This document shows positions 27,001-33,000 of a stretch of 64,000 nucleotides of DNA, piece by piece. Each line of letters starts with the position of its first letter. The first letter of the stretch is position 1. A program made the position numbers. Source of the stretch: Escherichia coli (lineage in GTDB: Bacteria > Pseudomonadota > Gammaproteobacteria > Enterobacterales > Enterobacteriaceae); assembly GCF_002854065.1 (NCBI RefSeq), contig NZ_CP024152.1; one strand, written 5' to 3'.

Positions 27001-30000
27001 GTTCATCCGGTATACGCAGCACATCGCAGGCCAGCCCACTGGACAGGATATGCTCAATACAATCGCTGACCAGATACATTTCCACCGCCGAAAAACGTGC
27101 GCCCCGGTTCAGGATGGCATCGAGCACCACGGGCAGGTTTTCGTCATCTTCATCAAGCCAGCAGGGGTAATCGCTTTCCTTCACGACCAGGCGAAAGCGG
27201 CGCGTCTGGCGGGTCAGTAACGTCTGACCGGTTGTGGTCAGCGCCGCCCGGATACGCCGCGTATCTTCTGCCACCTGGTAACTGACACAGCGTACTGCAT
27301 CGCGTACCGCATCAAGAACTGCCCTGATTTCGTCCTCTGCCAGCCACTCACCGGCATACGGAAAAGACACCTGTGTTCCGTCTGCCGGAAGTACCGGCAG
27401 CGACTGCCACTGACTGCCGGACAGTACCAGTTCCGCCCCGGTTCCGGTCAGTTTCTGAATGGCGGAGGCCAGGTGCGGCGGCAGCACGCCATCGTGGCGG
27501 TTAACGAGTAACGTCGCCAGCCGGGGCGCATCCAGCCGCACGTAAATGCTGATCCAGCCCGGATAGTTCGGATTTCGCTGGTCAACATCCGTCTCTTCCG
27601 GCCAGCCCTGCGCCAGCAGCAGGTTACGGGCGTGGCGACAAATCAGTGCATTCAGCGTTTCGTTCATGATTCATGGTCTCCCTGAATCGCCGCCCGGAGG
27701 CGGCGATAACATCAGTCGGTTTCGCGTGTGTTGTTTTTCAGCAGGGCGCGGGCCTGATTAACCACCGCCTGTCGGCGGGTGACGCATTCCGGGACGGCGA
27801 GGTCGTTATCACGGGCGGCCCACTCACGTTTCCACAGTGCCTGTTCAGCGGTCTGAATCAGGGACGCCAGCAGTTCAGCAGGGACGGTCACCTGGCGGTT
27901 TTCTCTCACGTTATTGATGATCTCCATCGCCACGCCGGAAGAAATACCGGACTCAATCCGCTGGTCTTCCGGGATGTCCTCCAGGCGCGCCAGGACGGTC
28001 CTGATTTCATGATCGGACAGGGAAATATCCATTCCGTCAGCGAGGGCCTGAATCTCTTCAGGGGACCAGACAACCAGCATCAGCGGCGTGTCTCCCTGAT
28101 ACTTTGCTGCCAGCTCCCGGCAGAGTATTTCGCATGTTCCGTACATACTCTCTCCCCTCAATCTTTGAAGCAGGAATCCAGTTCCAGAATTTCGGTATAT
28201 GCCTCCATCAGGAGGCGGTTTGCGCGAAACAACGTCTGACGCACCAGACGTTCCGGCAGGGTGTCAGCATTAAAGCTGTACCGCCGCTCCATCTCATTCA
28301 TGGTTGTACGCAGGTCGCACATGGCATTGGCCACCTCCGCCACTTCGGCGCGAAGTTTTTCATGTCCGGCATAGTTCATTTACGCAGCCTCCGGCATAAA
28401 CCAGTCATCATTCGCGGCCCCCTGCTGCATGGCCCGCTGTACGGCAGCCAGACGTTGCTGTCCGGCACGGTGATACTGCTCAAGCAGCTCGATACCGATA
28501 TACCGGCGTCCGGACTGGAGGGCGGCGACGCAGGTTGAGCCGCTGCCTGCAAACGGGTCCAGCACAATCGCGTTCGGGTGTGTGAAGCTCTCAATCAGCG
28601 GTTGCAGGCTGGTAACGGGCTTTTCCGTCGGGTGATGACGGTTGCCCGAATATTTCCAGCCCAGCACGTCCGGCAGCGGGTTTTGTGGCAGACGTGGACG
28701 GCCTTTTGCCAGGATGTAGGCGCATTCGTGGCGATAGCCCACATATGCGGCCTTCGATGTGTAGTTTTTGGTAAACACCAGGTGTCCGACCACGCTGAAT
28801 CCCGCATTTTTCCAGGCGGCCATAAAGCGATCGACGCGGTTCCAGCCGTAGAAGCTCACCATCAGCGCGTCTTTTTTGAGTACGCGGTACATTTCATTAC
28901 AGGCCGGTTGCAGCCATTCATCGGTTTTATCGCCGGCGATGGTGCGCCCGGAACGGTCACGAAAACCGACGAGATATGGCGGGTCAGTTAATATGAAATC
29001 AATGGCGTTATCAGGGATACGCGTCATAACATCGATGCAGTTACCAAGGACAAAACGGGACATACGAAACTCCTTCTCTTACAGAGGGCACCGGGAGGGC
29101 ACCCCTGTGGTGCCCGTTCCCCGCTGCCTGTGGGCTGTTCACCGCGTCCGGTAACGGGTCAGGCCGACCGTGGAATATCGCAGCCGTCGTCTTTTTGACG
29201 GCGAGAATATGCCGCGAAAGCGGCTTGAAGGGCGTTCATCAGAAAAGGGCGACAGGCTGGCGTACACTGTCATCGACGCCAGCCGGGAGCGGTAAAAGCG
29301 CCCGTCCCGTGCCCGCCGGACGCGGGACACTGACCACAGGCAGCGTTTATGCCGCGCCGCGTCAGCCGGCGCAGTAAAAAGAGGAGCACGGCGACATCCT
29401 TTGTCGGAAAAGAAGCGGGCGGTTTCCCGCCCGTCTCCGTCATACTTCATCCGCCATAATGCGCCACATTGTCGACTATCCACGCAGGTCCGGTGACTTC
29501 CGGCAGCTCATCGTCATCTGTCGGGGAAGACCATTCCAGTTCCCCCCACAGCACATCAACAAGCTCTCCGCGCTCATACAACTGCCAGCCACAGAAATCA
29601 CAGCCCTGTTCGGCGTACCAGTGCTCCAGCGTGCAGCCGAAAAGGCGGCTTAATTCTGCAACAACGTCGCTCTCCGGCTGACACCACGGCGTGTCGAAAT
29701 CTACCTGAATGAAGTTTTCCCCCTGACTGCTGATATTCAGGTCATACCCACAAGGCCACTTCACGCCATACCGTTCTGTATACCAGTGATATGCAGAAGG
29801 AACACCGTTCAGAACACCGCCGTTAAAGCCATTCACTTCAATATCCAGGCGGGTCGGCAAAACCGTCAGCAGGTCAAACGGCATGGTTTTTTCCGGCAGT
29901 ACGTTGTCACACAGACGGTTCCACCACACCGATACATCCTCGTTACTCCAGAAGCCACACCAGTCACCTCTCTTTGCGGTGAAAAGTGCGGTGATGGTAT

Positions 30001-33000
30001 CCCTGACATCGTCCGGTAATCCTTCCCAGCGACGCTGTTCAGTACCGCTCTGCAGCCAGAGTTCATGCAGCATCAGGCAGTTTTGTTCATCCAGTAGCAC
30101 ACCGTTCTGCAGGTGTGTCAGCCAGCGTGTGAACGCGATATTCTCCGGCGATACAACACCACGTCCGGCAGCCGTCAGTCCGGGGCACGGTTCAAACTGC
30201 ACATCTTCGTGGTCTGCAGAAGTCCGGCACTTCCGGCCAGAAACAGCTGAATACCTTCATTTGTGGCGCGGCGATAAAACGGTGTGACTGCGCCGCTGGC
30301 CAGTCGTTTAATCTCAGCGATCTGTGCCGGTTCACCAGAAAAATACATACGATTCGAGCACCAGTTTGGCATGGGAATTCTCCTCTCACATGCGGCCTCC
30401 ATCAGGCCGTGCCGCACCTGTAACCGGGCGACCGCATACGAATGCAGGTGCGGCCCCGAAGCCGCAGCGCGTGGAGGAGGAACGACGAAACGTGACCGGG
30501 TGAGGAGGCCGGCGACAGCGACACACTTGCATCGGATGCAGCCCGGTTAACGTGCCGGCACGGCCTGGGTAACCAGGTATTTTATTCACAGAACCGTGCG
30601 CAAAATGCTGTGGATAAGCTGAACACAGCAGTCCACAGCAGGCATACAGCCACACTCTCAGAGAATTGAGCGCTTTTTAGTCACAATAATGACATTTGAC
30701 TGTGTGTGGATTCAGTTATTAGAATACTGTATATGCATACAGCAACAGAAAAGGGAGATGAGAACATGATCCGCATTGAAATTCTTTTCGACCGCCAGAG
30801 CACAAAAAACCTCAAATCAGGCACACTTCAGGCGCTACAGAATGAAATCGAACAACGTCTGAAACCACACTACCCGGAAATCTGGCTGCGTATAGACCAG
30901 GGCAGCGCCCCGTCTGTATCTGTCACAGGAGCCCGCAACGACAAGGATAAAGAACGTATCCTGTCTCTGCTGGAAGAAATCTGGCAGGACGACAGCTGGC
31001 TGCCTGCAGCATGAGTACCGTTTATCACCGTCCGGCTGACCCTTCAGGCGATGACAGTTACGTGCGCCCGTTGTTTGCCGATCGTTGCCAGGCCGGTTTT
31101 CCTTTCGCCTGCCACTGATTATGCTGAGCAGGAACTGGATCTGAACAGCTATTGCATCAGCAGACCTGCAGCCACCTTCTTTCTGCGCGCCAGCGGTGAA
31201 TCGATGAACCAGGCTGGCGTGCAGAATGGTGATCTGCTGGTAGTGGACAGGGCCGAAAAACCACAACACGGGGACATCGTTATCGCTGAGATCGACGGTG
31301 AGTTCACCGTCAAACGACTGCTGTTGCGCCCACGCCCGGCACTGGAGCCGGTTTCAGACAGCCCGGAGTTCCGCACACTGTATCCGGAAAACATCTGTAT
31401 TTTTGGTGTTGTCACTCACGTGATACACAGGACGCGGGAGTTACGCTGATGTTTGCACTGGCTGATATCAACAGTTTCTACGCCTCATGTGAAAAAGTTT
31501 TCCGCCCGGACCTTCGCAACGAACCGGTCATCGTACTCAGCAATAACGATGGCTGTGTGATCGCGCGCAGCCCGGAGGCAAAAGCCCTTGGCATCAGAAT
31601 GGGGCAGCCCTGGTTTCAGGTGAGACAAATGCGCCTGGAGAAGAAAATACATGTATTTTCCAGCAATTATGCGCTGTACCACAGCATGAGCCAACGGGTT
31701 ATGGCTGTTCTGGAGTCGCTTTCTCCCGCAGTTGAGCCCTACTCAATTGATGAAATGTTCATTGATTTGCGGGGGGTGAACCGTTGCATCTCTCCGGAGG
31801 TTTTGGTCATCAGCTCAGGGAACAGGTAAAGAGCTGGACAGGACTCACCATGGGGGTGGGCATTGCGCCTACAAAAACGCTGGCTAAAAGTGCACAGTGG
31901 GCAACAAAGCAATGGCCACAGTTTTCCGGTGTGGTCGCGCTGACGGCAGAAAACCGTAATCGGATCTTGAAGCTACTGGGGCTGCAGCCAGTTGGTGAGG
32001 TCTGGGGAGTAGGACGCAGACTGACGGAAAAGCTGAATGCACTGGGTATTAACACAGCACTGCAGCTGGCGCAGGCTAACACGGCATTCATCCGGAAAAA
32101 CTTCAGCGTCATTCTTGAGCGTACGGTACGCGAACTCAACGGCGAGTCCTGCATATCCCTGGAAGAAGCACCACCGGCAAAACAGCAGATTGTCTGTAGT
32201 CGCAGTTTTGGTGAACGAATCACAGACAAAGATGCCATGCACCAGGCTGTTGTTCAGTATGCAGAGCGGGCCGCAGAGAAACTACGTGGGGAGCTTCAGT
32301 ATTGCCGGCAGGTGACGACATTTGTACGGACATCCCCCTTTGCAGTAAAAGAACCCTGTTACAGCAATGCCGCTGTGGAAAAGCTTCCATTGCCCACACA
32401 GGACAGCCGGGACATTATTGCCGCCGCATGCAGAGCCTTAAACCATGTCTGGCGTGAAGGGTACCGCTATATGAAGGCAGGAGTCATGCTGGCTGATTTC
32501 ACACCATCGGGTATAGCGCAGCCGGGATTATTTGATGAAATCCAGCCCCGTAAAAACAGTGAAAAGTTAATGAAAACACTCGATGAACTGAACCAGTCGG
32601 GAAAAGGGAAAGTGTGGTTTGCGGGGCGAGGAACCGCCCCTGAATGGCAAATGAAACGGGAAATGTTGAGTCAGTGTTATACAACTAAATGGCGAGATAT
32701 TCCCCTGGCCAGGCTGGGTTAGTTCAGTCATCTCCGAACATATTTTCAGCGTTTCTTCTGGTCTGGTCTTCACCGTCATTTCTCGACAGACTCTGCTCTG
32801 TAAGAGGAGTACTGCAATCCACAGACGTATGGAGACCAGATTGTTTTTCCAGTAATTCAAGCAATTTCTTTTCAACCGAAAAAGCACCTGGTATCACGCT
32901 GGAAATCACCTTATTAATATCATCCAGAGTCGTATTTTCTGTCAGTAACTCCGATATCAGCAAAGGAAGACGTTTATCTATAGCTGCAAACGCCGCACCA

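Follow-up and report, generated by a model that had tools for sequence, protein, structure and literature searches.

A DUF1281 gene most probably interrupted by a one-base deletion in the leading region of an IncI-type plasmid from Escherichia coli

The stretch of DNA considered here (hereafter the window) comprises 64,000 nucleotides (nt) of the Escherichia coli contig NZ_CP024152.1 (assembly GCF_002854065.1), in which two overlapping reading frames on the minus strand, at 29447-30372, are found upstream of a DNA methylase gene. These frames are best explained, with a probability of about 0.95, as the two parts of one 308-codon DUF1281/Api92-like gene of the IncI-type plasmid leading region that has suffered a 1-nt deletion, with nothing programmed in the arrangement, and no evidence opposes this explanation. 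The locus is not an intact member of its family but a disrupted one, either pseudogenised or mis-assembled; the event itself, a commonplace frameshift of one base in a plasmid gene that is known, conserved and dispensable, carries little biological weight.

One gene in two reading frames

The gene, known as 'Hp8' of pESBL, takes up 926 nt in the window (29447..30372, minus strand), with the 1-nt deletion interrupting its frame. Its N-terminal fragment, open reading frame 1 (ORF1; 30175..30372, minus strand), runs for 65 codons from ATG 30372 to the TGA at 30177-30175, and is preceded by the strong Shine-Dalgarno sequence GAGAGGAG (30387-30380, minus strand), 7 nt 5' of the ATG. The second frame, ORF2 (29447..30202, minus strand), has 251 codons between GTG 30202 and the stop at 29449-29447. 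Relative to ORF1 its frame is -1 (or, equivalently, +2), and the two overlap by 28 nt (30175-30202), both frames being open across 82 nt (30256-30175). The methylase, an N6/N4 enzyme of 227 amino acids (aa) with the PF01555 domain, is encoded downstream of both frames, at 28380-29063. The coordinates, codon counts, ribosome-binding site, overlap and position upstream of the methylase given in an earlier sequence-only reading of this DNA were all correct on the minus strand. Its suggestion of a frameshift within one gene of ~315 aa likewise held as to the single gene and the frameshift, but not as to the size, which is 308 codons in the relatives.

The association of the two frames goes far beyond chance, because they match adjoining segments of one Pfam domain. 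The PF06924 (DUF1281) profile is split between them at its position 30, exactly at the ORF1/ORF2 boundary, with ORF1 covering profile positions 1-30 (28.9 bits, gathering cut-off 27.3) and ORF2 covering positions 30-177 (126.5 bits, cut-off 27.3, E = 1e-36). Residues 152-225 of ORF2 match the ferredoxin-like DUF1281_C domain (PF18406; 53.2 bits, cut-off 22.8). The protein is predicted to have a strand and a helix at its N-terminus and a ferredoxin-like sheet at its C-terminus, joined by a long helical part, and by the fold of the solved family member 2ijr it belongs to the family.

The homologs are uniformly undivided. Twenty full-length sequences, taken from Salmonella, Klebsiella, Kosakonia and Pantoea plasmids and from Logan, ENA and JGI collections, were aligned at 46-62% identity to the query, and all of them are single proteins of 304-319 aa. 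Alignment with homologs was the check put forward in the sequence-only reading, with two separate genes of these sizes as the outcome that would speak against one gene; the homologs proved to be single genes, and no such pair was seen. In the window, a single polypeptide of ~304-319 aa starting with MPNWCxNR is not encoded, as the frame breaks after residue 55, and it is obtained only once one T is put back. The locus was found by megablast in 4,913 of 72,556 plasmids, with coverage of at least 80% in 4,628 of them, and the best matches span 962 nt as against 961 nt in the window. The region is annotated as one coding sequence in CP101959, NC_018659 (pESBL-EA11) and NZ_AP021916, where the gene, counted from the same ATG, measures 927 nt, that is, 308 codons and a stop.

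The missing base has been placed by these alignments between C30209 and G30208 (30208..30209, minus strand; ACCAC[T]GAAG), where the relatives have ACCACTGAAGAT and the window has ACCACGAAGAT, the absent T being the sole difference in the alignment and lying outside any homopolymer. With the T restored, the protein is 100% identical to the intact 308-aa allele of CP101959, an allele that the gene-position index lists in 1,264 blocks. The disrupted form, in turn, was met nowhere else in the collections searched. An 81-nt query centred on the junction had no full-length 100% match among the 4,629 matching PLSDB plasmids or among the 3,746 matching RefSeq E. coli records, and a junction 35-mer had 0 exact matches in 100,044 GTDB representative genomes or in JGI metagenomes. 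By exact-protein look-up, the 65-aa ORF1 product is recorded on one NCBI contig of 87,351 bp only, probably the one from which the window comes, and the same contig carries ORF2 and a fragment of the neighbouring impA. The deletion is private to this assembly among the collections searched.

The contents of the two fragments follow the same division. ORF1 comprises 55 native residues and an out-of-frame tail of 10 residues (KMCSLNRAPD) before its stop; it retains the invariant MPNWCxNR motif, the predicted strand 4-12 and the helices 15-25 and 32-48, along with 12 of the 51 residues that are invariant in the homolog alignment. ORF2 corresponds to native residues 58-308, its GTG 30202 being the internal Val58 codon. 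With a single T lost at codon 55/56 of the 308-codon gene, a ribosome starting from ATG 30372 would translate 55 native codons and 10 wrong ones and would stop at 30175, and the other 251 codons would be left in the -1 frame behind an internal valine codon that has no ribosome-binding site. Given this frame break and the lack of a ribosome-binding site at GTG 30202, the allele is null as the sequence stands, and the protein would be expected to be lost as well.

ATG 30372 is taken as the true start on the strength of its Shine-Dalgarno sequence and the invariance of MPNWCxNR in the 20 homologs. RefSeq/PGAP often calls the gene at 300 aa from the internal Met9, skipping window positions 30349-30372 (as in NZ_AP021916.1, 15368-16270); the same two features argue for the 308-aa start and not for Met9. 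Annotators should enter the locus as a single frameshifted DUF1281 gene, marked as a pseudogene or for re-checking, and not as two hypothetical ORFs.

Damage to this gene is recorded elsewhere too, since databases hold many truncated forms and deletion fusions of it. The ENA metagenome contig ERZ27229669 k119_130365 (L005) carries an intact impCAB together with a CGA-to-TGA nonsense change at ~2897, in codon 22 of its DUF1281 gene, and the gene caller there yielded the same 251-aa ORF2 product; this allele is a second, unrelated knock-out of the gene. In the database proteins P0076, P0079, P0088, P0093, P0099, P0100 and P0161, the N-terminal part of DUF1281 is fused to PsiB, N6/N4 methylase or FinO domains, which suggests recurrent deletions in the leading region with one end inside the DUF1281 gene.

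Origin of the missing base

Whether the T is absent from the plasmid or only from its assembled sequence has been approached through the closest relative, NZ_AP021916.1 (pWP2-W18-CRE-03_2; MOB-suite replicon type IncI-gamma/K1), which matches the window over 63.7 kb at 99.96% identity. Differences in the shufflon repeats apart, the two are distinguished by 13 substitutions and by four isolated indels of 1 nt, of which three fall within 1.6 kb in adjacent genes, namely DUF1281 (30208), impA (31105) and impB (~31804). The probability of finding three of four uniformly placed indels this close is ~0.007, and the list of differences contains no substitution between 29093 and 34509, that is, in the 5.4 kb around them. 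Compared with NZ_AP021916.1 and a Logan contig, the umuD-like impA (31011..31449, plus strand) carries one T more at 31105, CCTTT in place of CCTT, and stops after 35 codons; removal of the T gives an intact allele of 145 aa. The umuC-like impB (31449..32722, plus strand) has a run of five T shortened to four at ~31800-31804, which divides it into ORFs of 126 aa and 312 aa. After single-base repair, each of the three genes is identical to the intact common allele. The interval 30.2-31.8 kb of the assembly should be flagged for three suspicious single-base indels.

It is a little better than an even bet that the T was lost from the assembled sequence by an error of the consensus or of polishing and that the real plasmid has an intact DUF1281 gene. 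Three coding indels within 1.6 kb and with no substitutions nearby, set against four isolated indels and 13 substitutions in all, are very unlikely as neutral drift, and this favours leftover consensus errors; at a divergence of ~2e-4 per site and an assumed indel rate of roughly a tenth of the substitution rate, ~0.03 neutral indels would be expected in 1.6 kb, and three are seen. The privacy of the deletion to one contig, the complete identity of every repaired gene to the common allele, and the presence of the impB indel in a Logan contig that has no impA insertion 700 nt away point in the same direction. IncF leading regions show 90-95% similarity to the locus, and such copies may defeat the polishing with short reads. 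Several observations, however, weigh against an error. The missing T lies outside any homopolymer, an unusual site for most sequencing errors, and almost no indels are found in the rest of the 64 kb. The impB allele with four T recurs in the independent Logan contig SRR26800289_99 (L006), the one without the impA insertion, so that it may be a real circulating allele and the cluster may contain at least one genuine indel. Natural lesions also exist, as in the nonsense allele of ERZ27229669 and in the truncated impB of L011 and L012.

A genuine and very recent frameshift, making the locus a real pseudogene, comes slightly short of an even chance. It would agree with the dispensability of the gene in transposon-insertion sequencing (TnSeq; PMC4288162), with the independent nonsense allele and the many truncated and fused forms noted above, with the truncation of impB in other assemblies (e.g., L011 and L012), and with the occurrence of the impB allele in an independent read set. 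It may belong to a decay of the dispensable block formed by impAB and DUF1281 on the margin of the anti-defence island. However, the excess of indels over the neutral expectation speaks against it; two hits in one operon would be redundant were the loss selected, and the deletion is shared by no other record. That all three indels are real and selected, the lineage having shed the island-boundary block in three quick hits, is improbable; if true, the DUF1281 protein would be costly, or would work with the plasmid's Pol V-like ImpAB module.

A loss of the CTGAAG (Eco57I-type) site, whether through avoidance of restriction or through a basecalling error linked to methylation, was considered for the missing T and dropped, because the window shows no avoidance of the motif (62 sites where ~31 are expected) and the motif is absent at the other indels.

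The programmed or coupled arrangement offered as the other possibility in the sequence-only reading did not stand up to the single-gene homologs and the private deletion. Translational coupling of two genes, or a functional split protein formed by the ORF1 peptide and an ORF2 re-initiated at GTG 30202, would profit from the position of the ORF1 stop 25 nt 3' of that GTG, a distance that allows occasional re-initiation by bacterial ribosomes. This is, nevertheless, very improbable, as no Shine-Dalgarno sequence was found in the 20 nt before GTG 30202 (CTTCTGCAGACCACGAAGAT), the codon itself is the native Val58, a single Pfam domain crosses the junction, homologs never come as two genes of such sizes, and ORF2 is devoid of the invariant N-terminal motif and of the first strand and helices of the fold. 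The least credible reading is a programmed -1 ribosomal frameshift of the dnaX or IS3 type that fuses ORF1 and ORF2 into the full-length protein, for although the geometry suits it (ORF2 in the -1 frame, both frames open over the 82 nt of 30256-30175), an X XXY YYZ heptamer is found nowhere in ORF1, that doubly open stretch included, the arrangement is conserved in none of ~4,600 plasmids or 3,700 E. coli records, 20 of the 20 aligned homologs are in one frame, and slippage elsewhere in the overlap would add foreign residues to the product. Both readings are rejected on the absence of a slippery heptamer and of a Shine-Dalgarno sequence and on the lack of conservation.

Leading-region context

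By mapping to NZ_AP021916.1, oriT and nikA are placed near 13.6-14.1 kb of the window, and the genes from there to 30.4 kb are all on the minus strand, oriented towards oriT. This block includes ardA, psiA, psiB, a ParB-like gene, ssb, klcA/ardB, the M.EcoGIX-type methylase and DUF1281, the last being its final gene and adjoining the divergently transcribed impCAB operon, which has a LexA-type box (CTGTATATGCATACAG, 30727-30742) just 5' of the impC ATG at 30766. The umu-like operons have been described as the terminal boundary of leading-region anti-defence islands (Samuel et al., PMC11541004). The spacer between DUF1281 and impC (30373-30765) folds as single-stranded DNA (ssDNA) above the background, with z = -4.7 for 30373-30705. 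In pESBL, 'Hp8' (O3K_25842) was scored by TnSeq at 1.00 as non-essential for both maintenance and transfer (PMC4288162).

Six early-induced operons, each with a single-strand DNA promoter, were defined in a 2025 study, the operon furthest from oriT having a 'class 3' hairpin 5' of M.EcoGIX (PMC12672017). The 383-nt spacer between DUF1281 and the methylase in the window (29064-29446) has ssDNA fold scores of z = -6.8 on the minus strand and z = -7.7 on the plus strand; it is probably this class 3 promoter, and the methylase probably has its own single-strand promoter within it. If so, DUF1281 would lie just outside the early-induced set, and the frameshift would not be polar on the methylase. 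Within the same spacer, PGAP places a 103-aa 'hypothetical protein' (29139-29450, minus strand) that has no family matches and is annotated in some related assemblies but not in others, and this ORF may be spurious.

Further repeats occur inside the leading region. Three of them, at 15502-15829, 18359-18856 and 24703-25199, are 81-91% alike, with one just 5' of ssb, and are probably ssi/Frpo class 1 elements. A pair at 19546-19899 and 26493-26844, 92% alike, lies directly 5' of ardA and klcA/ardB, in keeping with the published 'class 2' ssDNA promoters.

The remaining differences from NZ_AP021916.1 are found outside the DUF1281-impB interval. The fourth isolated indel, at 16034, is an extra T in noncoding DNA, in the spacer that separates the AGGTG Shine-Dalgarno sequence from the ATG of a gene for an 83-aa helix-turn-helix regulator (16035-16286), and the single non-synonymous difference in an annotated gene is that of the helix-turn-helix regulator, where it represents the common allele. 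Small paired indel differences at 63161-63169 and 63695-63697 coincide with short inverted repeats (ATTGGCACGTAGGCC and variants); the alignment is broken at 63701, and the final 319 nt, 63682-64000, align in reverse orientation, so that these differences at 63 kb look like shufflon recombination sites in another arrangement.

Comparison with known systems

The likeness of the two frames to dnaX and to the IS3-family transposases is one of appearance only, consisting in two overlapping frames with the second in -1. Unlike those programmed -1 genes, the window has no slippery heptamer, its arrangement is not conserved, and every homolog is encoded in a single frame.

The only structural relative is Api92 of Yersinia pseudotuberculosis (PDB 2ijr), an uncharacterised protein whose structure was solved by structural genomics and which represents Pfam DUF1281. 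The family as a whole is widespread and conserved, being encoded by the last co-oriented gene of the IncI/IncF leading-region anti-defence islands, next to the umu-like boundary, and with a solved structure and no known function it is a reasonable target for anti-defence screens.

The closest counterparts are the loci of Hp8 (O3K_25842 / WP_001134370.1, on the IncI plasmid pESBL-EA11), CP101959 and NZ_AP021916.1, which agree with the window in the locus and in its synteny, sharing the order impCAB, DUF1281, the 383-nt spacer, M.EcoGIX-type methylase, YubE and DUF1380, at 99.5-99.9% DNA identity. Unlike the genes of Hp8, CP101959 and NZ_AP021916.1, the gene of the window is without one T, and its frame breaks at codon 56.

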